Source of the DNA: Acidobacteriota bacterium
GTDB lineage: Bacteria; Acidobacteriota; Aminicenantia; Aminicenantales; Saccharicenantaceae
Reading direction: 5' to 3'
Length of the DNA stretch: 64,000 nt
Assembly (NCBI GenBank): GCA_028749115.1
Contig: JAQURD010000002.1
Coordinates: 145,402-209,401, forward strand
Shown here: piece after piece, positions 33,005-53,475 of the stretch
How the letters are laid out: the number at the start of each line of letters is the position of its first letter
Position numbering within the stretch: position 1 is the stretch's first letter
Program-made: the position numbers and the translations under genes
The notes under the pieces: model-generated
What the model was told of the DNA's origin: nothing
Database searches by the model: none
The model's input: the letters and a program-made list of their open reading frames with translations, nothing else

Positions 33005-33697
33005 TCATATATCTAACAGATACCCGTTCTTTTTAAGCCAGTCTTTATGTTTTTCATAATCTGGCAGCATTAGCTTGATTTTTGCCCAAAACTCCTTAGT
33101 ATGGTTTTTCTCTACCAAGTGAATTAATTCATGCACTACTGCATAATCAATAACTCCCAATGGGGCCATGATAAGACGCCAAGAAAAATTTAAATTTCCA
33201 GAGGGAGAACAAGAAGCCAGCCTTTTTCTTGAATCAGTAATGTTTACCTTATTAAAACTTAATCTCCTTTTTTGGGCATACCACCTGACTCTTTCTGGTA
33301 TCTTCAAACGGGCTGCATCTTTGTACCAGTTAATGATCAATTCTCTTGCCTCCGGTAGCGCTTTGTTAGATATAAAAAAACCTCTGTCAAACTTAATCGG
33401 AAGGTCCTGCTTACCGACAACCTTAAGTTTGTAATAAGCTCCAAGATAAGGGAATCCTTCTCCGTTGACATATTCTTTTGCCCTGAATAATTGGCGCTCT
33501 TTAGCTAATTCATCACTTTTTTTATTAATCCAGGCACTATTTTTTGCCAAAATTTTCCTTATAGTCCCGTCGTCGGTATTGGCGGGAACACGAAAGATTA
33601 GCTTCCCGCCCGAGCCAATCTTCAAAGACATAGACTTTCTGTTAGTTCTTACAATTTCTATTTCAGGCATTCTTCTTTCCATATATATGATAGGCAA
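33005..33697 (-). CDS. DUF45/YgjP-like (M48/WLM-type) zinc metallopeptidase, hsdR-associated
   Basis: HExxH motif in VVHELIHLVEKNH; this family is typically encoded directly downstream of type I hsdR. Confidence 0.7.
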   Translation of the reverse strand: MPIIYMERRMPEIEIVRTNRKSMSLKIGSGGKLIFRVPANTDDGTIRKILAKNSAWINKKSDELAKERQLFRAKEYVNGEGFPYLGAYYKLKVVGKQDLPIKFDRGFFISNKALPEARELIINWYKDAARLKIPERVRWYAQKRRLSFNKVNITDSRKRLASCSPSGNLNFSWRLIMAPLGVIDYAVVHELIHLVEKNHTKEFWAKIKLMLPDYEKHKDWLKKNGYLLDI

Positions 33698-36600: not shown

Positions 36601-36860
36601 GTTATCTGATCTTCTTCAATCCATGCGTTTATTCTTTTTAGAGACTTTTTTAGCTCGTCTTCGAGAATAATCTCTATGAATGCCTCCCGAAGTTTAACCA
36701 CCTCACCATATCTAGGTTCATTCTGGTCGTTAAACGATAATATCGGCCAGACCTGCTCAGGATCATCTTTATTTTGCCTATAAATTCCCCACCCGAGTCT
36801 CTGCAGCTGGGCTAAGAGCGCGTTTTCTACATAAAATTCTTCGTCTAATTTCTTATACAT
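33663..36860 (-). CDS. hsdR: type I restriction enzyme R subunit
   Basis: N-terminal PD-(D/E)xK (IPDIVLFVNGLPLVVIECKSP); SF2 helicase motifs GSGKSLTM (I) and DEAHR (II); 1065 aa. Confidence 0.9.
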   Translation of the reverse strand: MYKKLDEEFYVENALLAQLQRLGWGIYRQNKDDPEQVWPILSFNDQNEPRYGEVVKLREAFIEIILEDELKKSLKRINAWIEEDQITQVVRRITIPQGHSLLEANREIHDLLIENMSVSENRKTGEKSPTVRYIDFKRPENNSFLAISQFKVNIPGTEKHIIPDIVLFVNGLPLVVIECKSPAIADPVSEAITQLWRYANKRGEKEGNEKLFWYNLFMIATSNQTAKYSTITGEHEHFVEWKDPYPFALSDIGAAGNLTSQQVLVQGMLSQDNLLDILYNFTIFREDHKGEIIKLTPRYQQFRAVKKIIKRLKEKTDPKDKGGIIWHTQGSGKSLTMMFTVRAMYHDPELAKYKIIFITDRKDLERQLKETSKSVGFTVNLANSISQFKELLKTNTPDLVMGMIHKVQERDLETQFPILNISSNILIMIDEAHRTEYSLLGANLNRALPNAIRIAYTGTPIEKTKMTFGDYIDRYGIKQSVEDGVTVEIVYEGRVHSAELTNEGAANAKFEDVFAQVGPDEKERLLGRYTWRAYLEDQKVIRDKARDMIDHYVEHVFPNGFKAQVVAVSRLAAIRYKQALEEALRGKIEKLCRESSLGMDIAQLERLKVAVIISGLPNDPPEYHDYTDPNLHERLIKSFKLPFGKTAEGGINGDTGIIVVQSMLITGFDAPLEQVMYLDNVIKEHNLLQAIARVNRVYENKSCGFVVDYVGVLKHLKEALAIYADEDIEEISQVIINKAKGFDQLEYVHNQIESFFGSYGVSDWRNNLEECIDLLVDEETRNEFISLVRNFEKLMDAVLPDPQALKYVTDLKIIEFIKESARNRFRDDKLSLKDASKKIREIVEEFLISKGVNPKVAPLPLLDDAFIKQVKARTAKARALELEFATKDYIEKHFEEDPEFYQRFSDKLNSILEQYKNNWEELAAGLEIIRDKLKKGREAEQTFGFDPKKEMPFFGLLKQEIYGKDSIDQLSQEDLSFLIDITRDIIEMVKKEIRSVDFWENYTKQKRLKSYLISHLLNLKAKHLERSGSAEGNEPGWGGKIHTKRNEIAQKLLELAYHIYGKKNA

Positions 36861-36877
36861 TTTTCGTCATTTTTTTA

Positions 36878-39208
36878 TCATTTTAATTGAGCCTTTGGGG
36901 CATCATCGACAACTTCATCTAAAATTTCTTGGACTTTAGACAAAGCCTTTTTTGTAAGATTCTGCCCCCTTTTAATTAAAAAGCTATCTTTATCAGCTCT
37001 TATTTCTATTATCTCATTACCCCGTTTGATCTCAATATAGGGCTCCTCAAGGTCAGTGGAATATATATAATCAGCTCTGTCTTGAAGTCCCTCTCTCCCT
37101 TTTAAGTGACGATTAAATAGGTCGTATGTATATAGCTCAGCATGCCTGCCACTTAGTTTTTCTTTCATTAAGAGGTATATCTTAGGAAAGTTTTCATGGT
37201 TAAGTTCGTCTCTATCAGCTCTGATTTTCCTATTTTTACAATAGGCCAAATTGTTAGGATTTTTTATAAAATACTTACGCCAATCGTCTTCCCCAAACTT
37301 CTCGATTATTCTGTTCAGATCCTCCTCGATATTCTTAGAAGTTAGCTCATCCAAAAGATTTTTTAAATACTGACTTTTAATATCATCATTAAACACCTTC
37401 CTCCAGTTGTCCATCTTAGCTCTAAGACCTCCTTCAAAATTGCAAAAGGTATAGTTCATACCATCCTTGACCAGATAATTGCCTTTGGCCAATAATGCTC
37501 TCTCAAAAAGGTCATTTTTCCCGCGATCACCATTACTAAATAATTCATTATTACTAAATAATTCCTTCAGCCTTTCTCCATAATATCTGAATTTCTTTTG
37601 GTCATATCCCCCCTGTCGATCTTTGGAATATTCCAAGATAAAGCCGATCTGTCCGTTAAAATAGCTATGGGTTTCAACATCAACAATTAGTTCTTCCCAA
37701 TTCGGATCTTCCATAATTAACTTTACTTTTTTCTTTTCCTCATCTGTCTGTATCCCTAAAAAGAAGTCAACTTTGGAGTCACCGCTTAGGAGATATTCAT
37801 AAATGTCGTTTATATGATTACTAAGCTCTTTTAACGAGCGGATAGCCCTATAAAAATCCATAGGCTCATCGATTCTGGTATTGTTGATTAAATTCAGAGC
37901 TATTCTCGCCCACCTCTTGAACATCTCCTTATTATTCTCGTTTAAGGCATGATCCCTTATAAAATATTTATACAGTGCATAAAATCTGCACCTTTCCTGG
38001 TAATTGATGGTGCTCCCGCTGTCGTCACCCCTATGAGGTTTAAGAAAGTCTAAAAATATATTCTTAAATGGCTCAATTAGCCTTCGCAATACTTTATGTT
38101 TTCCAAATAAATTGCTAACACTTTCACTATAATGCGTTAAACAATCCAAGCATAAAACGATATTCCTTATATTTTCTTCTGTAAATGTAGAGACTTTTAG
38201 ATCAGACTGGCCATCTCTAGTTTTTTTTTCGTCATCCCACATTTTAAATATTTCATATGAGTCCATAATATCTTTTTCCTCTGATATAAGATTTTCATGA
38301 TGAGCCTCAACATTTAAAAGGAAGACCAGGTTTTCAAGAAAGCTGAAATACTTCTTGTCAACGAATTGCGGACTTATCTTCTGACTTTGCATTTTTTCTA
38401 TTTTCCAGAAAATTTCTAACCATTCATTATCAAATTTCTTTTTTTCATCATTAGTTAGATCTTTAGAAAATAACGCTTTAAAATGTTCCAAAAAAGTCAA
38501 TGGCTTCCCCCTGGCATTCATTTTGATATAAAGCTCGTCAGTAAGAGCAAACTCTTCAAGCGGAAGGAAGTAAAATTCAATCACTGATTGTCCGCCAATC
38601 AGCTTATCCAACAATTCATTTTCCTCTTTTCCAAAGTTTTCTTGAATGATATCCAACATATTTAGCATGTTTGAAACTGTTGGATCTCTCTCCCAAGACA
38701 GAAAGAACCATTTGCAATTTTTTATCGCCTTGCTTATCTCTTTTCCCTTTTCATACTGGACACCCTCGTTTATTAACTTTTTACAAAAATCCTGGGAACT
38801 TAATCTAGTCTCATAACTGAATCGTGATAGACGATCCTTTAGATCCTTATTAAGTCTGTCTTCTTTCAAGGCAAGATACCAATGAAGAAGCCAGAGAGTG
38901 GTGAGCCGCTGCTGGCCATCAATAGGTATCAGTTTTCCTTGATCTATTTTTCCATAAATAAAGTCTAAACTCAGCTTCTTGCCATTTTTGATGCTATCGT
39001 ATATGGCATTTATAAAAGCATCGGCAATTCTTCTCTCTAGAGGTCTCCCTTGGGCATAATCCCTTTGAATTATAGGGATTTCAATTTGATATTCAGCAAT
39101 TAAAGACCAAAAATTGGTTTTCATTTTGGCCCTCTCTATTAGATTCTTTGCCTTTTTCATCTTTAAAATATTCTTCCAATGTTTCGACCATTGACTCAAG
39201 ATAAGCAT
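36878..39208 (-). CDS. DUF262 (ParB-like/GmrS-type) domain protein, type IV-restriction-like
   Basis: IPIIQRDYAQG ... IDGQQRLTTLWLL DGQQR motif; likely true start is the Met at about 39124 (MKTNFWSL...); inserted between hsdS and hsdR. Confidence 0.75.
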   Translation of the reverse strand: MLILSQWSKHWKNILKMKKAKNLIERAKMKTNFWSLIAEYQIEIPIIQRDYAQGRPLERRIADAFINAIYDSIKNGKKLSLDFIYGKIDQGKLIPIDGQQRLTTLWLLHWYLALKEDRLNKDLKDRLSRFSYETRLSSQDFCKKLINEGVQYEKGKEISKAIKNCKWFFLSWERDPTVSNMLNMLDIIQENFGKEENELLDKLIGGQSVIEFYFLPLEEFALTDELYIKMNARGKPLTFLEHFKALFSKDLTNDEKKKFDNEWLEIFWKIEKMQSQKISPQFVDKKYFSFLENLVFLLNVEAHHENLISEEKDIMDSYEIFKMWDDEKKTRDGQSDLKVSTFTEENIRNIVLCLDCLTHYSESVSNLFGKHKVLRRLIEPFKNIFLDFLKPHRGDDSGSTINYQERCRFYALYKYFIRDHALNENNKEMFKRWARIALNLINNTRIDEPMDFYRAIRSLKELSNHINDIYEYLLSGDSKVDFFLGIQTDEEKKKVKLIMEDPNWEELIVDVETHSYFNGQIGFILEYSKDRQGGYDQKKFRYYGERLKELFSNNELFSNGDRGKNDLFERALLAKGNYLVKDGMNYTFCNFEGGLRAKMDNWRKVFNDDIKSQYLKNLLDELTSKNIEEDLNRIIEKFGEDDWRKYFIKNPNNLAYCKNRKIRADRDELNHENFPKIYLLMKEKLSGRHAELYTYDLFNRHLKGREGLQDRADYIYSTDLEEPYIEIKRGNEIIEIRADKDSFLIKRGQNLTKKALSKVQEILDEVVDDAPKAQLK

Positions 39209-40958
39209 CCCTATCTTGTTTTTCCCATTTAACTGTTTGTTCGGAATTCTTAGAAAAATATTTTAAAAAGACATTTTTCGTGCCTATGGGAACAAAGCCA
39301 CCCTTTTTATCTATTTCTATAATCTTTTCCCTTTTGATGGGGAATATATTGTTACTTAGAGCAGAGTTATCATGACTAGAGAGGAGAGTCAAATTATCTA
39401 TTGAATGAATATTGATTTCATCAGAAAATAATTTGTATATTGTATCTTGTATTTTTTTAAATGTATTTTCGTCTATTATTTTCTCCTTTAATAAATCTTC
39501 AATATCTTTGGCCGCTACCAGATATCCATTGTTTTCTAAATATTTCAGTTGATCAGCAAGAAGAAGTTTTCTTTGATTGCTATTTTTTATAGTTTCTGAA
39601 TTTTGGGCATGAATGTGCTCTAGAGTCCATTTTTGTTCGACAAACTTATTAAAAGAGAACCTTGTTTCGTGGCTATCTTTTGCGATTAATATGTTAAATA
39701 ATAAAAGAACTTTCCTTATATCTTTATAATCTCTATCATATTCAAGCTCTCTTAAATAGTTACCGACACTATTTTTGTCCTGGAATTGGATACTTTTCTT
39801 AATTTCGTTTCTTATCCAGTCTTTAAATTCAACTTTGTCATAACTTTGACAGCATTTTATAATTTCCTTAATTTGAGTATCCGAATGGATTAGATAACCA
39901 ATTAGATGATAATATTCATCGTTATAAAACCATTCATCAAACATTCTATGATATGTCTTAACTTCATCCCATAGGCTATCCCGGGCTAAACCTTCTGATG
40001 CAATAATTTGGCCGTTAATAACGTCTATCTTTTTGGATATAAGTTCATTGAATATATAGAACGTATAATAAGGATCGATTAACTTATTTACTTCAATATC
40101 CACCAGCTTTTCATATTTATTAGCAATTAGGTCAAAGATAAATTCAATCCTAGTAGGAATATCATGTTTTTGCCTGTTTAGGAAATACCAAAATTTATCT
40201 GCCCGTAACGCACTTTCTATACTTTCCCATTCGTAGGCTCTTTTGAATTGGTGGTTCTCTCTATCTTCCTCAGATTCTTTAATAAATAAGATTGCCTTTA
40301 TTAGTTCGGCACTGGTCAGTGGTATTTTTCCCATATTTATTCTAGTGAATATTTCTGCTGGATCTTTGACCGCTTCATCATCTTCCGCCTCATACCAAAT
40401 AAATCGCACATTATTCGCTAAATCCCGGCCATTTTTTCTGTCAACCTTTATAAGAGCATTTGCAAAATCAGCCTTTGTAATCCTTTTTTGTTTTATATTT
40501 TCTTCAAACCAGTTCTTAATACATAAAAAGGCTTTGCTGATATAATAATAATCTATATTGTCTTTATCTTCTGTTATGATATCTGAGATCTTTCTTAAGT
40601 AATCTTCACTGCCCGGCCTGGTTTCATATTTTAATTGATAAATATTTTCAATATAGTAATCCTCCTTCAATCTATCCTTTAGAAAGGTTAAAACCAGAAA
40701 TATCGTTGTTAGCCTCTGCTGCCCGTCTATAACCTCATATTCATTCTGATTATTATTGTGCTTTTTGACGACGAGAGGCTGAAGGCAATAAAATTCTCCG
40801 GGTTTCTTATTATATCTACTTTGAAATTCTAAAATATCGTTTAATAGGTCAAGCACCTGCCTTTCATCCCATCTGTAACCCCGCTGATAAGACCCAATGA
40901 TGAATGTCTTGTTGAACAATTCGGGAATTGATATTAATTTAATTTGCGTCTGTGTCAT
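39093..40958 (-). CDS. GmrSD-like fused DUF262-DUF1524 type IV restriction endonuclease
   Basis: N-terminal SYQRGYRWDE ... IDGQQRLTTIFLVL (DUF262); C-terminal WTLEHIHAQN ... NLTLLSSHDNSALSN (DUF1524 His-Me finger-like). Confidence 0.75.
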   Translation of the reverse strand: MTQTQIKLISIPELFNKTFIIGSYQRGYRWDERQVLDLLNDILEFQSRYNKKPGEFYCLQPLVVKKHNNNQNEYEVIDGQQRLTTIFLVLTFLKDRLKEDYYIENIYQLKYETRPGSEDYLRKISDIITEDKDNIDYYYISKAFLCIKNWFEENIKQKRITKADFANALIKVDRKNGRDLANNVRFIWYEAEDDEAVKDPAEIFTRINMGKIPLTSAELIKAILFIKESEEDRENHQFKRAYEWESIESALRADKFWYFLNRQKHDIPTRIEFIFDLIANKYEKLVDIEVNKLIDPYYTFYIFNELISKKIDVINGQIIASEGLARDSLWDEVKTYHRMFDEWFYNDEYYHLIGYLIHSDTQIKEIIKCCQSYDKVEFKDWIRNEIKKSIQFQDKNSVGNYLRELEYDRDYKDIRKVLLLFNILIAKDSHETRFSFNKFVEQKWTLEHIHAQNSETIKNSNQRKLLLADQLKYLENNGYLVAAKDIEDLLKEKIIDENTFKKIQDTIYKLFSDEINIHSIDNLTLLSSHDNSALSNNIFPIKREKIIEIDKKGGFVPIGTKNVFLKYFSKNSEQTVKWEKQDRDAYLESMVETLEEYFKDEKGKESNREGQNENQFLVFNC

Positions 40959-40979
40959 TAATTTCTCCTTATTTGCTCT

Positions 40980-42176
40980 CTAAAGATCATTAACTCTCAC
41001 CCTGCCAGTCAATAAGTCTTCCATCAGCCCTCTTTTTATCCGCTCTAATTTTGCTTTATAAGCCTCTTCCTTTTCAATAACTTCATCTGCCTGAGAAAGA
41101 ATTCTAGCGATATGTCGTTGCTCATACGCAGAAGGGACAGAAATTTCTAGGTTAGAAAACTCTGAAATCCAGAAACGCTTATGTTCACTACCTGGATTAT
41201 AATTCAACAACTGTATCATATTATAAAGGAAAAACAAGCTGTTCCTATCATCTTTTAACCTCAATAGCTTTAATGCTGATGATTTCACTTTGAATACAAA
41301 AGAGATATATCTGCTACCTGTAGTAAAATCATCAAAGATAATAACTGGAATATTTTTAAAAACGCCGTCTTCTTCATTCGTATATCCCAGAATAAATGTC
41401 TTTCCTGCTGTTAAAACTGGAACGCCGAAACGTTCATCATAGTTTTCAGTTTTTACAATATATTTAGTTGGCTGTTCATACTGCAAAAGCTCTCCTAACT
41501 TTTTTATCTTCCACTCCTCTGGAATTCTGCCGAGGGGGGAATCTTTGAATTTGTGCGTTTTTTCACTTCTTATATGTCCATTTTCATCAATGCCTTTTGT
41601 CAACAATTCTTGCATTAAGCCTTGTTTTAGGCGATTATACTTCTCAATAAGGGCATCGGTTTTATCTATTGCATTATCAACCGTTTCAAGAATTTCAGCT
41701 ATTTTGCGCTGCTCAGAGCTGGATGGAAGAGCGATATATAAATTAGAGAATTCTGAAATCCAGAAACGCTTATGCTCACTACCCGGTCTAAAATTCAGAA
41801 ATTGCATTGTGGCATAAAGGCAATATAAATTATTCTTATTGTTCCTTAGCCTCAAGATTTTTAAGGCCGATGATTTCACTTTGAAAGGAAAGGTGATATA
41901 TCTACTTTCTGTAGTAAAATCGTCAAAAATAATAACAGGGATGTCTTTAAAAACCGATTTATCTTCATCTGTATATCCTAAGATAAATGTTTTCCCCGCG
42001 GTTAAGACTGGAATGCCAAACTGTTCATCGTAATTTTCACTTTTGACGATATAATTGGTCGCCTGCTCATATTTTATGACTTCGCTCAACTTTACTTTCT
42101 GCCACCCTTCTGGCAAGTAATTCATTTCTTCATTCTTAAATATCGTGATTTGTTTCATATGAAAATAACTTATCAC
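40980..42176 (-). CDS. hsdS: type I restriction-modification specificity subunit with two near-identical target-recognition domains
   Basis: Two roughly 170-aa TRDs (KLSEVIKYEQATNYIVKSENYDEQFGIPVLTAGKTFILGYT... vs KLGELLQYEQPTKYIVKTENYDERFGVPVLTAGKTFILGYT...) separated and followed by the conserved coiled-coil spacers. Confidence 0.85.
   Translation of the reverse strand: MISYFHMKQITIFKNEEMNYLPEGWQKVKLSEVIKYEQATNYIVKSENYDEQFGIPVLTAGKTFILGYTDEDKSVFKDIPVIIFDDFTTESRYITFPFKVKSSALKILRLRNNKNNLYCLYATMQFLNFRPGSEHKRFWISEFSNLYIALPSSSEQRKIAEILETVDNAIDKTDALIEKYNRLKQGLMQELLTKGIDENGHIRSEKTHKFKDSPLGRIPEEWKIKKLGELLQYEQPTKYIVKTENYDERFGVPVLTAGKTFILGYTNEEDGVFKNIPVIIFDDFTTGSRYISFVFKVKSSALKLLRLKDDRNSLFFLYNMIQLLNYNPGSEHKRFWISEFSNLEISVPSAYEQRHIARILSQADEVIEKEEAYKAKLERIKRGLMEDLLTGRVRVNDL
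41021..42101. repeat. internal direct duplication (about 500 bp x2, roughly 75% nt identity) encoding the two TRDs of hsdS
   Basis: Protein-level near-identity of the two halves; DNA copies at about 41606-42101 and 41021-41531. Confidence 0.6.
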
Positions 42177-42187
42177 CCCTCCCCACG

Positions 42188-44740
42188 TTAAAACTCTTGA
42201 TAAAAGCCTAACTTTTTTAAAAACTCGTCGAGCTTTCCTACTTCTTCATCCCTTGCAGCTCTTAGCTCAAGCAAAGATATTTTATATTTGTCCCACAGGT
42301 TTTCAAAAATCTTAATTATTCCTTTTTTCTCTGCGTTTAAATATCTATGGAGTTGATCAGCCAGAAGTTTGTAAAATTTTTCAAGAATCAAAGTTTCCGC
42401 TTCTTCATCTGTCAGCGAATTTCTTTTTTGATCAATCTTGCCTTCTTTTATCTTAATTAATTCTTTAGTGTCCTTATCTTGTTTATAAATACCTTCTAAT
42501 TCTTGGGTCTTTTGTTTAAGTTTCTTTTTCCAATCGTTTAAAGTCTTATTTTTGCTGCTTATCTTTTCGTGCAGTTCCCACAACTCATTTATCGTTTTCC
42601 TTGCTAAATCCGATATCGGATCGCCGTTGAACTTGGTTACTGAAGAAACTAAAGATTTGTTCCATTTTTGCTTTGACGGTACAAGAAGGATATCTTTTAT
42701 CTGCTCTTCCAAATAATCCATAACTCTATTAGCAGTTTTATCTCCTTGGCTCTCTTCATCCCAGTCATCTATCTCTTCTAAAAGTTCGCCTAGTTCCTCT
42801 TCAATTTTAGCTATCTTTGTTTCCAGGCCATCTATTTCTTCAGCTTCTTCTTTAAAATAATTTTGCTTGATCATGTCATCATCTATCAAGTTTTTGCTCC
42901 AACCGGCAGAGGTAATGGTTTTAAAGTCATATTTTAAATTTTCCCACCAGTTAGCAAACAAGCCAGAAACCTTGAACTCATCGAGTGCACCGAGCTGGAT
43001 CATTTTGTCCTTAAGAAGGTTCATGGCCATGTCTCTAAAGGCCCAAAGGTTATTGTTACCCTGACACTTTTCAATTTCAGGCTTAATTTCGTTCCAGAAT
43101 TCAGATAGGCAATTTAAATACTTGTTAAATGTGTCCTTTAGGCCTTCTGAAGACTCAACAACATCTCTTATCTTGTTCTTATCATCAATCTCAGACTTGA
43201 ATCGCCACCTACCTTGCGATACTGGTTCAAGAATAAGTTCGGGTGATATAGAAAGCTTTTTAAAGCTTTCAGCTTGACTATATACTTCTTCTTCCGGTAC
43301 CCAGCCCTCAATATGGGCTTTAACATTTTCTGGCTCAGGATCTGGGGAATTGTCTACATATCGTCGAATGTTAAGATTAAAATCGTTTTCTTCAATCTCC
43401 TTAATATCCACAAGTTTTGAATACTTTTCTATTTCTTTTTTCCCCTCGAAAACAGTTACAATCTTCTCAATATCTTCAGGTCTAAGAAAGTTCTGGTTTC
43501 TGCCTTCACCATACTCTCTATCAGCATTGATAAAAAGAATTTTATTTCTTAGATTCTCTGGTTTATTTTTGTTGATAACAATTATGCAAGCTGGAATGCC
43601 CACATTGTAGAAAAGCTTGGCTGGTAAACCAATAATAGCTTCGATGAGGTCATCCCTAACTATGCCCTCCCTTATGACCTTTTCGTGACCTCCCCTGAAA
43701 AGAACTCCATGAGGCATAACACTGGCCATGATTCCTTTTTCTTTCAAACTGGCTATCATGTGCTGAAGGAACATCAGATCCGCTTTTTTCCCTTTTTCAG
43801 GTGTAAATCCATATTTAAATCTGCTTTCATATTCCATATTGGCCCTGGAATAATTCAAAGAGAAAGGAGGGTTCGCCAGCACTCTGTCGAACTGTTTTAT
43901 ATATCCATTTTCTATAAAACGCGGATTGACCAGTGTATCTTCGTTCTCGATGTGGGCATCGGGAATGTCATGCAGAATCATATTCATCTTGCAAATTGAC
44001 CAGGTCACTGGATTTGATTCCTGCCCATATAATGCTATGTTCCTTGGATTTTGCCCTTGGCCTTCTACATATTGTCTAGATTCGATAAGAAAGCCGCCTG
44101 AACCTACCGTTGGGTCATATATGGTCATCCCTTCCTCTGGTTTAATCAGTCTAACCATTAATCTTTTCACCTGCGGGGGAGTGTAGAATTCGCCTCCCTT
44201 TTTTCCGGCAGAGTCAGCAAAATCCTTCAGTAGATATTCGTAAGCAGCTCCTAAGAGGTCAGGAAACTCAAAATCATCATTAGTAAGTCTATACTTATTA
44301 AAATGATGGATTAGGTCAATAAGCTGCTGGTCTTTGAGCTTGGTTCTTCCCTTTTTTACATTGAAATCTATATGCTTTAAAACTCCGTCGAGCTCTGGGT
44401 TGACCTCTTCGACTGCAGCGAGGGCTTTGTTTAGCTCGTTGCCGACATCCACCTTAAGGTTAAGTATTGTTTCCCATCTTGCACGTTGCGGCACAAAGAA
44501 TGCATCGCCATAAATATTTTGGTCTTCAATAATTTCTTCGAGCTCTTTGCCAGCATAGCCTTTTGACTCATATTCTTGTTTAAGTTCCTGTTGCTTTACA
44601 GTAAATACGTCTGAGACTCGCTTTAAGAATAACATGCCAAAGATGTATTCCTTATATTCGGAGGCATCCATCTTGCCCCTGAGAATGTCAGCTGCTTTAA
44701 ATAGATGTGTTTCTAACTGGCGGAGTGTCAGCTTAGGCAT
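42188..44740 (-). CDS. hsdM: type I restriction-modification DNA methyltransferase subunit (N6-adenine) with long C-terminal coiled-coil extension
   Basis: HsdM N-terminal domain; SAM-binding [10 protein letters not shown]; catalytic NPPF ([10 protein letters not shown]); 850 aa including roughly 330 extra K/E-rich residues. Confidence 0.9.
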
Positions 44741-44795
44741 AGGTCTCTTCTCCCTCTATATTTATGCATTTATATTTATGATTATATAATAATCG

Positions 44796-44990
44796 CTATT
44801 TAATCTCTCCATCTGATGAAAACATATTTTTCTTAACTAAAAATTCAGATAAAGACTCAGGAGATTCCAAAAGAATCGGCTCTCCAAATTCTGTATTCTT
44901 GCTATGATAAATCGGAAAAAGCACTTTGATACCTTTATTGCATTCAATGTTTTCTACCACTTGGGATTGATGGCCTTTTAGAGTGTCCAT
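44796..44990 (-). CDS. small hypothetical protein (64 aa) between the upstream module and hsdM
   Basis: ORF co-oriented and tightly spaced with its neighbours; no motif. Confidence 0.3.
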   Translation of the reverse strand: MDTLKGHQSQVVENIECNKGIKVLFPIYHSKNTEFGEPILLESPESLSEFLVKKNMFSSDGEIK

Positions 44991-45029
44991 ATTTTGCCCC
45001 TTCGCAAAAAGATATTACCGTTATCCTAT

Positions 45030-45695
45030 TCAACCCTCGAGGACCCGCCCTCCTTTATCAACCCAATAAATTTTAAAGGGCAATAACTTTTTTCTGAACC
45101 ACTCCACTTTCATTAATAGATTTTTGTAGGTGGTAAATCCAGCAGGAAGGGCAATACCAAAATCTACTTCTTGAGACCTGTCACCCCAGAAAATCAGGTC
45201 GAATATCGCTTCTGCGAAATAATGCCTAGCCTGAGCATGCCTGCCCGTCTCTGGATATCCTTTCACGCTAATCCATATGTTCCTTCCCCTTGGATCCTGG
45301 GCGATAACATCTATTCCTTGAGAGCGGGTGGCCGTATCAGAAAAGCTTATTATTTTATATCCCTCTCTTTTTAGCCAGTTGGTCAATTTCACTTGAATAT
45401 TTCCTTCCCAAAACCATGGCTTAGCAAAAGCGTTTTTTTCTCGCTCTGTAGAAATTTTATTTTTCGGCTCAACAAGATAAGAGGAGCCCAGATTTAATTT
45501 GTTTACCTTCTTATTCTTCAGGCAACTACAGCAAAGAGCTTTAGGCCGTAAAATCTTACCTTTCATAGCCAGAGAACGGCATACGGAATTTACTTGCTGT
45601 CTTGGGCCAATTCCGCTTTCTCTTGAAAGACAATCATCACAATAGCCTTCATTATTTTGGCTCAAAAATTCAAGTATTTTTTCTATATTGGTCAT
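45030..45695 (-). CDS. hypothetical protein (221 aa), Cys-rich N-terminus, possible nuclease-like C-terminus
   Basis: 13-bp gap to the upstream gene; N-terminal CDDC ... CCSC cluster; C-terminal GIDVIAQD ... WISVKG weakly reminiscent of Mrr/PD-(D/E)xK folds. Confidence 0.45.
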   Translation of the reverse strand: MTNIEKILEFLSQNNEGYCDDCLSRESGIGPRQQVNSVCRSLAMKGKILRPKALCCSCLKNKKVNKLNLGSSYLVEPKNKISTEREKNAFAKPWFWEGNIQVKLTNWLKREGYKIISFSDTATRSQGIDVIAQDPRGRNIWISVKGYPETGRHAQARHYFAEAIFDLIFWGDRSQEVDFGIALPAGFTTYKNLLMKVEWFRKKLLPFKIYWVDKGGRVLEG

Positions 45696-45708
45696 GTGTC
45701 ATAGCTTC

Positions 45709-46935
45709 TTATTCAAGTATTTTTTTTAAGATCTCAAAAACTTGATTTTCTCTGTTCCTGGTTACCCTTATAGAAACATCCTGGCTGTGACAAACCTTTC
45801 CGGGCCCAATAATTCTTGCACTTATATATCCGCACCCCTCAACAGGCACTAGAAGACGGAAGCGAAATTTTGAAGAACTGCTCCCTTCTAACATTCTCTT
45901 TTCAAAAAACACTTCTAGGACATCGGGACATCGGCTGAATTCTCTTATAACCTGTCTCATTTCAGGCGGGAGATCATTAATGTTTTCGATCCGCCTCTCA
46001 AATATCGTATTGTCCCCCTTTGAAGTGATTCTTATATCCCTGGGATAATCTAGAAGAACTATTTCCTGTGATTTAATTAAAGGTTCTTTTTGGAATTCCT
46101 GAGACCTTTTATTCTCGCTCAGCTCATTTTTTTTCTTTTTTGGCTCATCCTTAGGATACCCCGCAGGCGGGAAAGGCTTATTAGTAAGTAATACCTTATC
46201 ACGCTCTAAAAAAAACACCTTTTCTGGCTCTATAAGTCTAATTTTTGACTCTTCATTTCCAAGAATATGATCACGGGCCAGTTCACCCAGAGTAGAGAGT
46301 ATTGTGGCTCCTGCATACTGTTCTCCGAACACATGAAGCACCTCAACCTTAGAAGAAATGCGATCCCAGTTTAGAAGGCTGCGGTAGGCTTCCTGGCCGG
46401 TTAAATCAAATAACCTGACAATCTCAAATTGTCCTATATAAGAAAGCATTATTGACGTTAAGAACTCATCTTTAGCCCATATCGCCGTTATATCAGGATG
46501 ATCTTCAATATCACAACTATAAACCTGAATAAGCTCTTCAGGTAAAAGCATTCCATAAAGTGCTGAAATTATCAGAATATGGTGTGGTGCCTCTTCAAGA
46601 ATCCGATCATTTTTCTCCTTGACCGCGGTATAAAATCTTCCAGCATAACGGCTGGCCGCAGACATATAAATTCCGGGCTTTGCTGATCTGCCTCCAAAAT
46701 CCGGGCCTGGAAAAAGTCTCGCATTGAATTGCATCTCCTTGAGATTCAGACCATCCCGACTCAAGGAACCGCTTTTAATAATCTCGAGAACTCTCAATCT
46801 TCTTCTTATGAGTTCACCAGCTATATTAAATGAGATGACCTTCGATATCGAAGGCGCTTCCTTATCATAATCATATTCCCCTTGAACTTTCTGATTTGAA
46901 CAAACCGTGACAATGAGTATATGGCTTTTATTCAT
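45709..46935 (-). CDS. YaaA/DUF328-like domain protein with about 200-aa C-terminal extension
   Basis: N-terminal 170 aa aligns with E. coli YaaA signature blocks: ILIVTVCSNQK ~ LILISPAKT; YAGRFYTAV ~ FKGDVYTGL; HILIISALYGMLLPEELIQVYSCDIE ~ [25 protein letters not shown]. Confidence 0.5.
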   Translation of the reverse strand: MNKSHILIVTVCSNQKVQGEYDYDKEAPSISKVISFNIAGELIRRRLRVLEIIKSGSLSRDGLNLKEMQFNARLFPGPDFGGRSAKPGIYMSAASRYAGRFYTAVKEKNDRILEEAPHHILIISALYGMLLPEELIQVYSCDIEDHPDITAIWAKDEFLTSIMLSYIGQFEIVRLFDLTGQEAYRSLLNWDRISSKVEVLHVFGEQYAGATILSTLGELARDHILGNEESKIRLIEPEKVFFLERDKVLLTNKPFPPAGYPKDEPKKKKNELSENKRSQEFQKEPLIKSQEIVLLDYPRDIRITSKGDNTIFERRIENINDLPPEMRQVIREFSRCPDVLEVFFEKRMLEGSSSSKFRFRLLVPVEGCGYISARIIGPGKVCHSQDVSIRVTRNRENQVFEILKKILE

Positions 46936-47386
46936 ATGTTATCGATCCATTAATTGACCTAAGCTTTCATGCTTCTTTTAATAATTAGGCAAAGAAATCA
47001 GGTCCCGGCACCACCGCCTTTATATAAAATAATTTTTCTCGACCCGAAAATCCTCTTCTGAGGTGATTTTTGGGGCGAAAGTTAACCTTTCTTGTTGCCA
47101 TTACTTTCCTAAAAACGGGCCTTTTTTCTTCCTTGAAGAGTAAAACCTCGAACTCAATTGCCCTTCCATTTATCATTAAGATAATAGGATAGAAAACCGA
47201 TTTTAGTCAACCAGGACCATTTTTATCCAATTTGAGATATAGTAACCAAGAAACACCGGCTATTGATAGGGAACGCCTTCGTTCTGTTGCCAGCTATCAA
47301 TAAGAATAGAAATCTATGAAGTTAAGAGATTTGTAATTCGAAAGATGACTTTAGTATGGAATAGCCTTTTATGTTTTGATCTATTT

Positions 47387-47872
47387 TTACATCTCTTTTC
47401 TCTTTAGTGCTTTTTCTATTCCCTTCATTTCTTTACTGTGTTCCCGCATTATTTCTTTAAGTATACGATTAATATCTGCATCCCGAGGCACTTTCCCTTT
47501 TACTCGCGCCCCCGGTACCCTAACCAAATGGGTAACAAGGGTTTCTATATCTCTTAAATAATCGACTCGCTTTATCCTGAAAATGACAAAACTATCCCAT
47601 TTCCCGGCATGGCGATCTTTCAAATGCCAGTTAATACGCCTAAATAGGTCAGTGGTCAATCCAACATAATATAATTTATCCTTGCGATAAAGGGCATAGA
47701 TTTCTGAATATCCTTTCATTATTTCCTTAAGCCGCTTTTTAAATACTGGATTGCCAAAAATACTATAGGGAAGCTTCTTTGACATGCCTTTAATCAAGGC
47801 ACCCTTAGTCGTCTTTTTTTTGCTTTTCGGTATAGTTCCCTTGCCAACTTTTTTCCCATTTCGTTCATTCAT
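47387..47872 (-). CDS. GIY-YIG nuclease family protein with Lys-rich N-terminal tail
   Basis: GYSEIYALYRKDKLYYVGLTTDLFRRINWH matches GIY-(x10)-YVG with downstream Arg/His; alternative start at Met52 (47719) would give a canonical roughly 110-aa GIY-YIG protein. Confidence 0.65.
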   Translation of the reverse strand: MNERNGKKVGKGTIPKSKKKTTKGALIKGMSKKLPYSIFGNPVFKKRLKEIMKGYSEIYALYRKDKLYYVGLTTDLFRRINWHLKDRHAGKWDSFVIFRIKRVDYLRDIETLVTHLVRVPGARVKGKVPRDADINRILKEIMREHSKEMKGIEKALKRKEM

Positions 47873-48611
47873 TTTTGTTCTCCCCCAATAATATTATTTC
47901 TGATGCAGAATAGTTATTCTAAAGAATCTTCAATCAGTCTCGGAACATCCAAACACGTCATGAACGCATTAAACCATAAAGTAGAGAAACTCACGCTCTT
48001 CGCGCCTTTAATATGCAAATTTCTGAATTAGCATGCATTTGAGAATACCCAACTTCGAGTAGCGCCTTAAGATGTTCATCGTTTTGATTTCAAGACTAAC
48101 ACTGACCATCCTTTTTAGGTAGCACACCCATGCCGATCTTTATAAATATTCAATATTCCTGGGGGGCTCTGTCAAGTTTTTTGCATGGTTTGGCTATTGC
48201 AAGCACTTGGTTTTTCATCTTGGTAGATTGCCCAGCCTCATTTTGCTATAATCTCACGACCAGTTTATCTCCATTAAACATAGAATATTTATTGGTCCAA
48301 TTACAGTCTCATTTAATAAAAAGGAATTTCTTAAAAGTTTGCTAAGGCCCGACACTAAGATAATATTTAATAGCGGCATACTCCTGGCTCTCAAATTTGG
48401 AGCAAACTCAAGACAGATTTGAACATCAGCTATGAATTGCATAAGATATTAACCAGAGAAGAAAGGGAAATGGAAGAAAGAAATTTGGCCACCTTTCCTT
48501 ATAACATTGTCAACTCAAGCCAATCTTTAAGCAAAATCGGGTCTTCCTTCTGGCCATCATGACACCCATTTGGGACAAATCTTGACCCTTACTATCCGAC
48601 GCAGCGTCTGT

Positions 48612-51600
48612 TCAAGTTGGATCGTCATCATCTATGTTTGAACACTTTTGAATTTTTTCAATAACAGAGGTTATCAAAGAATTAATATAGCTTTTTATTG
48701 TCCCTGGCGGACATTTATCATACATCCTTTCTAATGATTCTTTTTTATGTGCCAGGTCAGATGAAATTTGCCAAGTTGCAGATGGACTACCAAAGAAAAC
48801 TTGTTGAGCAAGAACATGTTTTATCTCATCGAAGAGGCCAACTTTTTCAGTAGCTATTAAATATTCTAAGTATAAATCAGTTGTACCATTGCTAAAAGGC
48901 ACGCTACATAATGCATTGGCAGCAATTCTTAAATTCCCAACATCTCCTGCTTCTACTTTCTCGCTGATATAGCCCATTAGATAATCTCTTTGTTCATTAT
49001 CAGTGGTGCAAAGATTACTAATTAATAATTCATTTGATAAAGGCGACAAAAGACCTTCGTTGGACCAAGTATTAACTTTTTCCATCAGTTTCACAAAATC
49101 TTCATATGTTCTAATCAGCCCTTTTACCGAACCGAACCCATCAAAGGGCATCGCATCATAGTCTAAAATTTTACCTCTCTTATAATATTCACTTTGCTTT
49201 TTAATGCGATAGTCAACCAGACTAATGAATTTATCTAAATCACTGTTAATCGCGAATCCTAAGAGGTTATCAGTATGGTGATCTATCTTGGGAATTTCTC
49301 TTATTATCTCAACAAGCCTTTTTCGTATCTTTTCCAAATCCTCGTCTCGCAGGTTCCAATTCTTTGCTTCTTGTATCAAAAAATCGCAAGCCTCTAAGAC
49401 TGGATGGCCTACTTCTCCTTGTAAGGATTGTTCAAGAATATAGACTATTTGATCTCTTTCTTTCTGCGGCCTATCTTTAAAAATCTGATAAGAACTGTAG
49501 AGAATACGGCTCCTGACATAATCGTCGGCCCGTTCAATAATTCTCAAAAGCCACGGCATAAATTTTGACTCAGAAACATTATGGCTAATTATAAGGTCCA
49601 ATAAGATACCAACCATTTGTGGCCGCAGGTTTTCCAAATCAGCAAGTATAGATTCAGCATATTTATCAATATATCTTTTGTCCTTATCGGAAGCAGCTTG
49701 GCAAATACCAGGATGAAATCTTTCTGGAATCTTCTCCATAAGTTTTCTGTTAGTTGCTATTTGAATAAATGCTTTTTCGTTAAATTTCGACCATGTCTCA
49801 ATCAATGGGACAGGCCCCAGCCGCGCAATTCCGTTTATTTCATTTTCTAATCTATTTAGATATCCAATTATTTCATCCTGTTGTTTGTTCTTATCAGACA
49901 ACTTTTTTACTAACACATCAAAATCTCTCTGTTGAAATGCGATGCATCGATAATAATTATCAATAAGCCATGTCCTCCTGTCTTTCCCTGGGGTCTCCTC
50001 TTCTAGTTTCTTAAAATCAGAAATAATTAGGTCGTCCACAACAAAGTATCTAAATATTAGATAATCTATTGACCTAGGAAATGCTCTTAGTATGTCTGCT
50101 GCCTTAGCACTTAAATTTGGGTGATCTTCGTTATCTTCCCAATATCTGATCAGAACATCTTCAACTGCACTAAGAAGTTGATGAGAGTCAGTAAAGTTTA
50201 TTAGTTTTTCTAACCATGTAAAGGCTTTTTCGATATCTCGAAGGATTCTATCCCAGAAGTCATCATTCTTGGAAGCCGGACGATATCCAATATAATCGAT
50301 TATTTCTATACCCATCTTTTTAATCTTGTCATTTTGATGGAATAAAAAACATTTAAGCACTTCCATTGCCTTATCTCTATATTGATCTATAGATTTTTTG
50401 AAAGAACCACTATACCGAAGGACTTTTCTCCCAATAATCAGCTGATATTCATAGCCTTCTTGGTACTCATGAGAACCTGATAGGGCTTCTTTTACGCCTT
50501 CGCTAGCTAATTCCGCTTCAAGTTCGGTACAGCTCGCCTTGTTTACCCAGCTTAAAAGTTCATTTAAAGAGTTTGTTGCGGATGTTATATTTTTTTCTAT
50601 AGGAGAGACGATATTTCTTATAAGCGTCGTCGGTTTGTAATTATGACATGTCCCTTTGAGACCTTTTTGAGCAATATAAAGAATCAACTCAAGAGTCACT
50701 TTTTCATATCCGGGAATATGAAGAATGCTATAGATAATCGGTCCATAAGAATCTTGATTAAGTCGATAGCCTTCTTCGGTGCTTGATGAATCTATATAGG
50801 CATAAGTCAAATTAATTGTCTGATCTGGAGCTAAAAAAGCCACATGGCCAGCGAGCTCAAGTCGCTTTGCTTTTTCCCAGTCATTAGTCTGCGATACCTC
50901 ATCAATCCATTTTTTTAACAGGTCCTTGACAGCTTCATTGACCAGAGTTGTTTCTTTGTATAGGGATGCATCTGCTAAATTAGCCATTAGCTGGTCAGGA
51001 CATATAGACAACCAGTTGTCCAACATAGTATGAGCTATATTTTTTTCGCTCTTTTTATCCAGCTCAATAGATAAATAAATGTCACCTTTCATATCAGGAT
51101 TGAATCTTAAAGAAGAACCGGTTTTGCGAAGGATTTTTGACTCGACGAGCCGATCCATGGCTTCATTTATTAAATCAGTTTTCAGATCCAATACAGATGC
51201 TAATTGTTCGATTATTTTATTAGCTTGTTTCTCTTTTGGAAAGGGTAAAATTGCTGATAGCTCTCTTAAGAGATTTTTTGTATCCCGTTCATTCAATAGC
51301 CCCTGGAGAGCGTTTTCGGCCTCACGATCAAGTTCATCTTTAATGCGTGTTTTTATCTCTCTTCCATCGGTTGCTCCATCTTTTATATACTTACCCGTAA
51401 CTACAATTAAGAATAGATTCCCGTTTAATTGTTTAACAATTCTTTCCGGATGATTAATTGTTTTTGAACCTGACGCAATATTCAAGATTTCTATCAAAAT
51501 CTTTTCTGGCAGTTTAGGTAATTCAAAAACCTCATAATTATAAATACTCTGCTTACAAGCTAACTCTTCTACAATTTTCAATCCTGAACTCCGGCAAGAC

Positions 51601-52457
51601 AAAATTATCTTCAACAACCCTGGACAAAAAGTCTTCGTGTGAGCAATTAGTTTTCGTGCTTCATCCTGATATCTATCTGCATCATCCAGAAATACTACTG
51701 TATTTTTCTCGTGATTCAATTCATTAATGGCATTATTGAGATCACTTATTCCCGGCCTACAAAACCAAGCTTGCATATCAGGCTTGATTTTGATCACATT
51801 TTTCCCAGCGTCGATGATAAAATGAGTTTTTCCATATCCACCACAAGCATGAACAATGAATATTTTGCTTCTGGAGTCTTGTAAAAACTTCTCGAAGGTC
51901 TCTAACGAATCTTCTCTTCCTAAGAAATTACTGAGAATGTGCTCTGACTGCGCTTTAGCAAACTTTTGGGGCGGAACAAACATCGGCTCCTGAGTATCGC
52001 CGAAGTAATTGTACCTAAGCCATGGGTACTGGACGATTCTGCTCTCAAGATTTGCACGCGGCCAAATAAATAATTTTTTTACAAACCCTTGACCCTGATT
52101 CAGCCTCTCTAGTTTACCAACATGATCATTTATACCTACTCTAAGATCGGCATTAGTCGCAATTAAAAGATAGTCCACCCGATTTTTCTTAGCCTTTTTC
52201 AATTCGTCTTTTACCTCTTGACGCAATTGCTTATAAGCTTGATTAAGATTATGCTTTGTCCATTTCGACTGAAAATTCCAGACACCGCAATATTCCATAT
52301 ATGGACCGTCATAGCGACCATCCCACCCGCCATCGGCGGCTATTGCTGGGCTACTTGAAAGGTAACCAGGGTTGTTTATCTCCAGCGCAAATAAGTCATT
52401 CACCAAACGCTGGAAATCCCTATCATTATTAATTTTCCCCCAGTCCAGTTCTTTCAT
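48612..52457 (-). CDS. Avs-like antiviral STAND NTPase: N-terminal Mrr-like restriction-endonuclease domain + P-loop NTPase + about 950-aa helical repeat sensor
   Basis: aa 15-100 DFQRLVNDLF ... ADGGWDGRYD ... NFQSKW ... VDYLLIATNADL (Mrr_cat-like D ... QxK); Walker A IFIVHACGGYGKTHF (aa about 200), Walker B VVFLDDADR; rest is predicted alpha-helical repeats. Confidence 0.65.
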   Translation of the reverse strand: MKELDWGKINNDRDFQRLVNDLFALEINNPGYLSSSPAIAADGGWDGRYDGPYMEYCGVWNFQSKWTKHNLNQAYKQLRQEVKDELKKAKKNRVDYLLIATNADLRVGINDHVGKLERLNQGQGFVKKLFIWPRANLESRIVQYPWLRYNYFGDTQEPMFVPPQKFAKAQSEHILSNFLGREDSLETFEKFLQDSRSKIFIVHACGGYGKTHFIIDAGKNVIKIKPDMQAWFCRPGISDLNNAINELNHEKNTVVFLDDADRYQDEARKLIAHTKTFCPGLLKIILSCRSSGLKIVEELACKQSIYNYEVFELPKLPEKILIEILNIASGSKTINHPERIVKQLNGNLFLIVVTGKYIKDGATDGREIKTRIKDELDREAENALQGLLNERDTKNLLRELSAILPFPKEKQANKIIEQLASVLDLKTDLINEAMDRLVESKILRKTGSSLRFNPDMKGDIYLSIELDKKSEKNIAHTMLDNWLSICPDQLMANLADASLYKETTLVNEAVKDLLKKWIDEVSQTNDWEKAKRLELAGHVAFLAPDQTINLTYAYIDSSSTEEGYRLNQDSYGPIIYSILHIPGYEKVTLELILYIAQKGLKGTCHNYKPTTLIRNIVSPIEKNITSATNSLNELLSWVNKASCTELEAELASEGVKEALSGSHEYQEGYEYQLIIGRKVLRYSGSFKKSIDQYRDKAMEVLKCFLFHQNDKIKKMGIEIIDYIGYRPASKNDDFWDRILRDIEKAFTWLEKLINFTDSHQLLSAVEDVLIRYWEDNEDHPNLSAKAADILRAFPRSIDYLIFRYFVVDDLIISDFKKLEEETPGKDRRTWLIDNYYRCIAFQQRDFDVLVKKLSDKNKQQDEIIGYLNRLENEINGIARLGPVPLIETWSKFNEKAFIQIATNRKLMEKIPERFHPGICQAASDKDKRYIDKYAESILADLENLRPQMVGILLDLIISHNVSESKFMPWLLRIIERADDYVRSRILYSSYQIFKDRPQKERDQIVYILEQSLQGEVGHPVLEACDFLIQEAKNWNLRDEDLEKIRKRLVEIIREIPKIDHHTDNLLGFAINSDLDKFISLVDYRIKKQSEYYKRGKILDYDAMPFDGFGSVKGLIRTYEDFVKLMEKVNTWSNEGLLSPLSNELLISNLCTTDNEQRDYLMGYISEKVEAGDVGNLRIAANALCSVPFSNGTTDLYLEYLIATEKVGLFDEIKHVLAQQVFFGSPSATWQISSDLAHKKESLERMYDKCPPGTIKSYINSLITSVIEKIQKCSNIDDDDPT

Positions 52458-53475
52458 AGATAGTCTCTTTTAATCTAAAAAATAAATTTGCTTTTAAGCT
52501 TCATAACAGGAATAAGAATTAATGTTCCAATTTTGCCTTTCTAACCATTATATGAAATATAATGTGCTAAAAAATGGATGTCAACACACTGCCTCATTCA
52601 GTTAAGATGAATTATCGAGGGGGGGACTATAATAGCCAAAAGTAATTGTATTGCCAGCTGCTGACAACAGCTGGAAGATTGGCCGGGCAAGCCAGTTAGT
52701 TTTTGCAATTTGTATGAGCTTTATATAGCCATACGGAATAGTTAAATTAAAATGAGAGTAGCCATGGGAAAGCATACCATATATAAGATTTTTTCTGCCC
52801 AAGTTACAAGGGAAACCTCTGTCTAATAAAGAAGGTTATTAAACACTGAAGATATGATCGGAATTCGCATTAAATGGCTAGCCATTTAATGCTATAATCC
52901 CATGGATTTAGACATATAAAAACAGGGTTTACATTACGCACTCGATGGCAAGAAGAATTTTATGCTAATTTAGAAAAGATTTTAACTGCTTTCAGCTAGG
53001 AATTCATATAACGGTTTGAAGGAGGCGGTAGCACGGATTATTTCGTCCTTGAAACTTTCGTGTTCCATCTCCGGATAATCCTTGAAGAAATATCTGGTTC
53101 TGATCATTAGCTGACCGTTGTAACCTTTCTTGCGGGCAATGGCGCTGCAAGAATTCCAGATAGATATTAGGCAATTTGTTTCTTAGCTCAAAGAGCTGGC
53201 TTTCAAACTCACGGAAAAGATTATCATCCTGGGTCGTGTTTTTTATTCCATTTTTCTTCTTGACAACTGCCCGCCGGCGAATTATTTTTAAAATTGAACG
53301 GTTAGTTAACAGGGGAAAAGCGATGCGCCTCGGGTATAGCTGTCTGATCAGGGGAGAATTATCGGAATTTCTACATTTCCAGCGGGCTTTTTTCTAAATA
53401 TGGCTCTGCCTCGGGGCAATTTTGTTCAATTTAGTTGATCATTTTGCCCTGGGTCAGGCCGCAGGAGGTAAAGGG

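Follow-up and report, generated by a model that had tools for sequence, protein, structure and literature searches.

A YaaA/DUF328-like protein and a putative nuclease partner as a candidate exchangeable defence cassette ahead of a Type I restriction-modification operon in an Acidobacteriota genome

Introduction

Does a gene annotated as encoding a 'peroxide stress protein YaaA' serve stress protection, restriction, or an immune function of its own when it lies among defence genes? This question is raised by a 64,000-nt stretch of contig JAQURD010000002.1 (assembly GCA_028749115.1, positions 145,402 to 209,401 of the forward strand; hereafter the window) from an Acidobacteriota metagenome-assembled genome (MAG), in which genes for a 408-aa YaaA-like protein, a 221-aa cysteine-rich protein and a 64-aa open reading frame (ORF) stand directly upstream of hsdM of a Type I restriction-modification (R-M) operon. 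An earlier note, made from the letters alone, took the three genes for an undescribed DNA-sensing, defence or R-M accessory module. Based on the comparisons in this work, we propose tentatively, at a probability of about 0.4, that the 408-aa and 221-aa genes form a self-contained and horizontally exchangeable defence cassette, of which the first protein would read or process DNA and the second would cut it.

DUF328 proteins in the Dpd system and accessory modules composed of a sensor plus a nuclease are already known, while the 221-aa protein and the C-terminal domain (CTD) of the 408-aa protein belong to no Pfam family, and no description of a YaaA-like defence cassette was found in the literature searched.

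Results

A rare gene pair at the head of methylase/helicase systems

The 408-aa gene has the 221-aa gene directly behind it in at least eight distinct and independent loci, with gaps from -35 to +36 nt and at 42-62% identity. The earlier note had staked its proposal on conserved synteny and on profile support for the DUF328 similarity, and both were found. In these loci the pair is followed by a 1694-1699-aa YprA/DruE-like helicase (DEAD, Helicase_C, MZB), then by an SNF2 helicase (DpdE/DrmD models) and, on contigs that reach far enough, by a DrmMI/PglX-like methylase, an order of helicase, helicase and methylase that is the one of ARMADA Type I (PMC12458937). Orthologues of the 408-aa gene without the 221-aa gene lead DrmD plus DrmMI/Type IIG, HmaC-DUF7680-HmaB, Type II R-M and NurA/HerA operons, and an HNH_2 gene lies directly upstream of the 408-aa-type gene in 12 loci. 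The 408-aa gene thus takes the first operon position ahead of at least five different system types, and the neighbours of the cassette are always methylase/helicase defence systems.

The wider clade, in which only the N-terminal domain (N-domain) is common to the members, extends this picture to Type I, BREX, Mrr and PLD contexts, and its N-domains are fused to ParE/RelE toxins (5), Schlafen AlbA_2 (6), NERD (1) and HEPN (1) domains and to HEAT as well. The expected association with defence genes was therefore borne out, both by the place of the pair within a defence island and by the surroundings of its relatives. The designation as an R-M accessory is too specific, because the link to hsdM is not conserved and the closest orthologues of the pair lead operons like ARMADA Type I rather than Type I R-M; it is better described as an exchangeable cassette of defence islands with a preference for the leading position in methylase/helicase systems.

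The family is rare, with 22 clusters of the 408-aa protein in 5.8 billion proteins and orthologues in only 2 of 185,579 species genomes, both Ca. Aminicenantes. Searches of INPHARED, PLSDB and IMG/VR returned no matches to the cassette, except for one weak IMG/VR match to the 221-aa family; a phage or plasmid origin was therefore rejected, and the cassette is placed on the host side.

The cassette comprises two genes and not the three first suggested, as the 64-aa ORF clusters with no other among about 15 billion proteins and no counterpart was found in any related locus (tblastn over 97 related loci gave nothing at E below 0.4). It has a plausible ribosome-binding site and is annotated in the source MAG; probably it is lineage-specific or spurious. 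Neither this ORF, the 221-aa protein nor the CTD matched a significant family in PADLOC, NCBIfam or Pfam.

Exchange beside a near-identical Type I operon

HsdM relatives at 90% or more protein identity occur in Ca. Saccharicenans and several metagenomes, and the whole hsdM-hsdS-DUF262-DUF262-hsdR operon is present without the cassette in four loci (L099-L102), namely Ca. Saccharicenans (L099, GCA_049654545.1) and three metagenome contigs. By blastn, window positions 44754-41511, which cover hsdM and the start of hsdS, are 99.4% identical in DNA to positions 7988-11230 of L099, and homology breaks off 14 nt before the hsdM ATG, at window position 44754. It resumes on the other flank, where window positions 53230-52978 match L099 4086-4463 at 88%. 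The block between the two flanks holds a STAND NTPase gene, a GIY-YIG gene, the 408-aa and 221-aa genes and the 64-aa ORF, and the same slot in Ca. Saccharicenans is occupied by a 3.5-kb segment with a divergent AAA_11/AAA_12/DUF559 helicase.

Because a 99.4%-identical Type I operon occurs without it, the cassette is an exchangeable occupant of a hotspot and not a component of the R-M system; no conserved co-occurrence with the same hsdMSR operon was seen, and the idea of an integral or accessory subunit of this Type I system was rejected. In this genome, the alignment indicates, the cassette has recently been swapped in beside the Type I system.

An AT-rich palindrome, ATATTTATGCATTTATAT (44758-44775), lies directly at the swap junction.

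The N-domain has the YaaA/DUF328 fold

Residues ~1-265 of the 408-aa protein form a YaaA-like domain with the alpha/beta fold of YaaA (PDB 5caj). The DUF328 similarity that was noticed by eye holds up and far exceeds chance, while the extent assigned to it, the N-terminal 170 aa, was too short. The Pfam family PF03883 matches residues 87-195 at E 8.4e-7, with a score of 29.2 bits that misses the curated gathering score of 29.6 by 0.4 bit; the same family is matched by all 47 clade relatives at E <= 1e-3 (best 1.4e-11), and the clade profile aligns with E. coli YaaA at a probability of 95% and E 4e-8 (hhalign).

A near-invariant polar set (C12, S13, K16, R46, N71, D79, Y97, H118, H119, S124, E134, Q137 and Y139), with G128, W153, Y184 and W190 also strongly conserved, is kept in 41-47 of the 47 clade members at only 21-34% identity, and this conservation points to a specific pocket, which may be enzymatic or ligand-binding. 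The DUF328 signature, an N-terminal SxxK and S-G/A-L-Y-G...P...D/E...Q-x-Y, is present and aligns to the YaaA motif: S13, K16, S124, G128, E134, Q137 and Y139 are each retained in 46 or 47 members, and P132 in 41. The corresponding N-terminal motif of E. coli YaaA is SPAK. Furthermore, the C12xxxK16 and ISALYG128 (I122-G128) motifs correspond to the CxxxK and LSAxxG motifs of DUF6884, as described by the Pfam authors (PMC11701544), while the DUF6884 hidden Markov model (HMM; PF21818) scores the 408-aa protein at 17.1 bits against a gathering score of 30 and matches 10 of the 47 relatives.

The NCBIfam YaaA equivalogs score only 12.8-17.3 bits against cut-offs of 204-392, and identity to E. coli YaaA is 16%. 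The 408-aa protein is thus a member of the DUF328 superfamily and not an orthologue of YaaA, and the name given to MDD8019993.1 over-annotates it.

A rare C-terminal domain shared with sensor proteins

Behind the N-domain, a disordered linker (267-290) leads to a domain of 118 aa (291-408), which replaces the unique extension of roughly 200 aa first described. Its predicted topology is beta-alpha-beta4-alpha, and its motifs are (T/S)xxx(H/D)xT(I/M)(F/W), DLP and a conserved Gln. Neither a fold match in the PDB (Foldseek) nor a sequence match in the PDB or Pfam (profile searches) was found for the CTD, and a profile search of 1.84e9 representative proteins gave only 46 matches, mostly with the architecture YaaA N-domain plus CTD. 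A subset (P0081-P0094) carries the CTD behind other domains: CARF (Cas_APE2256), a receiver, or a nucleoside-deoxyribosyltransferase-like domain that precedes an ATP-cone. These architectures suggest that the CTD is an undescribed domain common to YaaA-like, CARF, receiver and ATP-cone proteins, and its place after sensor domains would be that of an output or effector module.

The sequence pattern, the topology and the ParE tails of relatives prompted a comparison of the CTD with RelE/ParE-like toxins; this reading was rejected, as hhalign gave a probability of at most 1.1% against ParE-like tails (17 and 52 sequences) and Foldseek, PDB and Pfam offered no support either.

In a subfamily of 511 aa (L014, L027, L030, L032), the protein has an extra C-terminal segment of ~100 aa with the motif 'GGYPG..HRMPSCC.VM', and its genes lie between an HNH gene and DrmD plus DrmMI/Type IIG methylase.

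The 221-aa partner combines a zinc-winged helix with a PD-(D/E)xK fold

The 221-aa protein consists of a four-Cys, zinc-stabilised winged helix (1-67), a disordered linker (71-90) and an XisH-like PD-(D/E)xK domain (92-221) with the core order alpha-beta-beta-beta-alpha-beta, in agreement with the cysteine-rich N-terminus and PD-(D/E)xK-like C-terminus recognised before. All of 27 homologues, at 37-53% identity, retain E97, D129 and K145. The following helix carries another invariant residue, D166, which could substitute for the acidic residue missing from the middle of the (D/E)xK motif in this family, as in Cfr10I (S188-V-K190 plus E204).

Each of the two domains is also encoded by a small gene of its own beside distant clade members, namely a 70-aa gene with a zinc-winged helix-turn-helix (Zn-wHTH) in L039 and L040 and a 143-aa PD-(D/E)xK ORF in L084. 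A 161-aa gene after the YaaA-like gene of L039, in which a D...ECK motif had been read, was rejected as a PD-(D/E)xK relative of the 221-aa protein, since hhalign gave no support. Likewise, the winged helix matches the fold of Z-alpha, the Z-DNA-binding domain, but lacks the helix-3 Asn/Tyr and the Pro-Pro-x-Trp wing, and this identity was discarded.

Solitary 221-aa homologues lie near methylase genes in L009 and L095, in L009 near restriction genes too; DNA glycosylase genes adjoin them, two HhH-GPD genes in L009 and a Tag-like Adenine_glyco gene in L095.

Layout of the locus and its neighbours

The three ORFs were confirmed in the window at the positions given in Table 1, all on the minus strand and co-oriented upstream of hsdM, with gaps of 13, 39 and 55 nt from the 408-aa gene to the 221-aa gene, the 64-aa ORF and hsdM in turn and with no terminator-like site found between them. 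The best promoter-like site upstream, TTGACT-18-TATTAT (47210-47181), agrees with 10 of 12 consensus positions; it is a consensus match only, and the total of such matches in the region is not above that of shuffled sequence.

Table 1. Positions of the cassette and of associated features in the window
Feature	Coordinates	Strand	Description
408-aa gene	45709-46935	minus	MDD8019993.1; YaaA/DUF328-fold N-domain, linker and rare CTD
N-domain of the 408-aa protein	46141-46935	minus	residues ~1-265; YaaA fold
CTD of the 408-aa protein	45712-46065	minus	residues 291-408
221-aa gene (PHU81_02245)	45030-45695	minus	Zn-winged helix, linker and XisH-like PD-(D/E)xK domain
64-aa ORF (PHU81_02240)	44796-44990	minus	MDD8019991.1; not conserved
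hsdM	42188-44740	minus	directly downstream of the 64-aa ORF
Type I R-M operon	33663-44740	minus	hsdM, hsdS, two DUF262/GmrSD_N genes, hsdR; Pfam and PADLOC
Promoter-like site	47181-47210	minus	best sigma-70-like match, upstream of the 408-aa gene
Variable block of the defence hotspot	44755-52977		8.2 kb; blastn against L099

The proteins concerned are MDD8019990-994, and the surrounding ~30-59 kb of the window are low in G+C and rich in defence genes, with the Type I R-M system, two GmrSD-like genes, a STAND NTPase, a GIY-YIG gene and toxin-antitoxin genes. After the 64-aa ORF the order is hsdM, hsdS, two DUF262/GmrSD_N genes, hsdR and a YgjP-like metallopeptidase gene (33005-33697), which overlaps the 3' end of hsdR; genes for such peptidases are frequent companions of Type I R-M systems. 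The tandem DUF262/GmrSD_N genes (621 and 776 aa; 36878-40958) between hsdS and hsdR are kept in L099-L102; since their ORFs as listed overlap by 116 nt, the downstream gene probably starts later than listed. In HsdS (40980-42176), the two halves are 64% identical over 179 aa, hence two alike target-recognition domains and a symmetric target. Against the Saccharicenans operon, which is near-identical elsewhere, the second of these domains (~41103-41510) is not conserved, and this points to a swap of specificity or to gene conversion.

Upstream of the 408-aa gene and co-oriented with it adjoins a GIY-YIG-like gene (47387-47872; 161 aa), named 'GIY-YIG nuclease family protein' by NCBI, with a Pfam score of 22.0 bits against a threshold of 22.6. 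This gene and an upstream 63-aa ORF were considered as conserved partners and dropped, having no homologues in the related YaaA-like loci. The STAND NTPase (48612-52457; 1281 aa), also inside the swapped block, scores 33.2 bits for nSTAND5 against a gathering score of 34, its N-terminus is weakly like PDC-M58A, and it is probably an Avs-like sensor.

Discussion

We propose that the cassette may work as follows. The N-domain would engage DNA and present one base to the pocket lined by C12, S13, K16, R46, N71, D79, Y97, H118, H119, E134, Q137 and Y139, and what it would most likely target is a base of invading DNA in a non-canonical state. Such an action is modelled on the superfamily, in which DpdC acts on preQ0 in DNA, YaaA binds DNA and YfjM is a predicted base flipper. 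The CTD could then serve as output or adaptor, and the partner nuclease would cut the DNA, here by the zinc-winged-helix PD-(D/E)xK protein and in many relatives also, or instead, by an HNH enzyme. From its leading position the cassette would complement the methylase/helicase systems behind it, in the manner of embedded Type IV enzymes. The comparisons establish the folds, the conserved residues, the synteny, the rarity, the host-side distribution and the exchangeability; recognition of DNA or of a base, coupling of the two proteins, cleavage and any anti-phage effect are inferred.

This arrangement of a reader plus a cutter is favoured because DpdC, a DUF328 enzyme of an R-M-like system, demonstrates that such proteins can have a base inside DNA as their substrate. 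We also count in its favour the enzyme-like polar constellation across the 47 clade members; a PD-(D/E)xK partner with invariant catalytic-type residues whose gene is adjacent in at least eight distinct loci; the upstream HNH_2 gene, the N-domain fusions to conflict-type domains and the CTD behind sensors; the separate recurrence of both domains of the 221-aa protein near clade members; and the constant methylase/helicase neighbours and host-side placement. Autonomy of the pair is argued for by its presence here without an ARMADA system and from the Type I operon that occurs elsewhere without the pair.

Several points weigh against this proposal. About half of the loci with full-length 408-aa orthologues lack the 221-aa gene, whose family also occurs without a YaaA-like gene, alone or ahead of ARMADA-I-like operons. 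The middle acidic position of (D/E)xK, residue 143, is S, T or N in the 221-aa family, so nuclease activity is not assured. The CTD, whose output role is putative, showed no similarity to RelE/ParE or to any solved fold. The N-domain might bind a nucleotide instead of DNA, and the steady operon-leading position would suit a regulator as well.

The last point belongs to a less probable alternative, in which the pair would be a signal-responsive regulator of the downstream defence operon, like BrxR/CapW, Csa3 or NrdR: the YaaA-like domain would sense a nucleotide, a base or DNA damage, and the CTD, the winged helix or both would bind an operator and set expression. First position ahead of at least five system types is the pattern of a portable regulator, the 221-aa protein does contain a winged helix, and the CTD stands behind receiver, CARF and ATP-cone domains, families whose commonest outputs are DNA-binding domains. 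Moreover, the cassette has replaced the native upstream region of hsdM, so that hsdM transcription now depends on cassette sequences. However, a regulator accounts poorly for the invariant catalytic-type residues of the 221-aa family, for an HNH nuclease as the other recurrent partner, for clade fusions with toxins and nucleases but not with helix-turn-helix domains, and for an N-domain pocket that looks enzymatic; the two intergenic regions show only short AT-rich palindromes and no conserved operator-like repeat, and half of the loci have no 221-aa gene.

The proposal of a reader plus a cutter could be carried further, to a version that we consider unlikely, in which the YaaA/DUF328 fold is a general base-reading module of prokaryotic immunity. 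In this clade it would flip hypermodified phage bases, such as 7-deazaguanines, the class to which the substrate of DpdC belongs, and the CTD would license an HNH or PD-(D/E)xK nuclease. The outcome would be modification-dependent restriction of a new, Type IV-like class, able to slot into Type I, ARMADA, DISARM-like, Hma and BREX loci.

Less probable still is that the 408-aa protein is a DpdC-like enzyme that modifies or corrects bases of host DNA, adding a second epigenetic mark or editing or repairing methylase products, with the nuclease restricting according to the mark. The precedent of DpdC, the invariant C/S/K/H/H/E/Q/Y set, which suggests catalysis, and the constant co-occurrence with amino-methyltransferases (N6_Mtase, Eco57I/PglX-like, N6_N4_Mtase) would agree with such an enzyme. 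Yet no TGT/DpdA, DpdB or preQ0-synthesis genes were seen among the annotated genes of the operon, the 8.2-kb block and the related loci, although not every ORF of the window was scanned; no PADLOC Dpd model matches the 408-aa protein, and the clade's ParE/RelE, HEPN and NERD fusions would be expected of a sensor more than of a housekeeping modifier. As for the database annotation itself, an ordinary YaaA peroxide-stress protein beside unrelated genes is highly improbable, since the NCBI name and a weak PF03883 match are outweighed by equivalog scores far below their cut-offs, low identity to YaaA, an additional domain, orthologues in so few species genomes, the conserved linkage to nuclease and defence genes and the location in a swapped hotspot block.

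An active cassette would mean that the DUF328/YaaA fold serves immunity in a second role, next to that of DpdC. It would also define a new output domain, found behind CARF, receiver and ATP-cone sensors too, and supply a portable accessory module for ARMADA, DISARM-like and Type I systems. What interests us most is the clade-wide picture, together with the CTD common to CARF, receiver and ATP-cone proteins. In addition, the precise junction with a 99.4%-identical operon illustrates cleanly how cassettes turn over at a defence hotspot, and the naming of the clade as 'peroxide stress protein YaaA' hides a defence-linked family.

Comparison with known systems

The nearest described counterpart is DpdC, which corrects the assumption that YaaA-type proteins are not known from defence: it is a DUF328 protein of the Dpd system, where it converts preQ0-DNA to ADG-DNA (PMC10164549, PMC12839542). 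The two proteins share the PF03883 superfamily, DpdC belongs to a large defence system rich in helicases and has a base inside DNA as its substrate (PMC10164549), and the SNF2 helicase neighbouring the relatives of the 408-aa protein matches the DpdE model at E 5e-201. Unlike DpdC, which is compared here by its description, the 408-aa protein has the CTD and a paired nuclease gene, with no DpdA, DpdB or preQ0 genes seen nearby. E. coli YaaA is a widespread single-domain housekeeping protein of ~258 aa that binds DNA and acts in peroxide stress (PDB 5caj), whereas the 408-aa protein is a two-domain protein of great rarity that occurs in defence islands only. B. subtilis YfjM, a DUF6884 protein, is predicted by the Pfam authors to flip a base into a pocket (PMC11701544); its motifs are alike, but the DUF6884 score stays under threshold and architecture and genomic context differ.

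For the partner, XisH and enzymes that join a wHTH to PD-(D/E)xK, such as SdaI, offer a resemblance without HMM-detectable sequence similarity, from which the 221-aa protein differs by the four-Cys zinc site in its winged helix and by S, T or N in place of the middle acidic residue. At the level of whole systems, the PADLOC v2 models gave only non-significant best matches, PDC-M57A for the 408-aa protein (E 0.038) and Cas10 for the 221-aa protein (E 0.01). ARMADA Type I, which comprises a YprA helicase, a BrxHII/SNF2 helicase and a PglX-like methylase, is described with no mention of YaaA/DUF328 (PMC12458937); the window has no ARMADA genes, and the pair here precedes Type I R-M instead. Type IV genes of the GmrSD/BrxU type that are embedded in R-M or BREX loci have no kinship with the cassette in sequence or fold, and a dependence of the cassette on modification is hypothetical; they likewise represent an accessory nuclease module at methylase-based systems, and the window itself holds two GmrSD-like genes inside its Type I operon.

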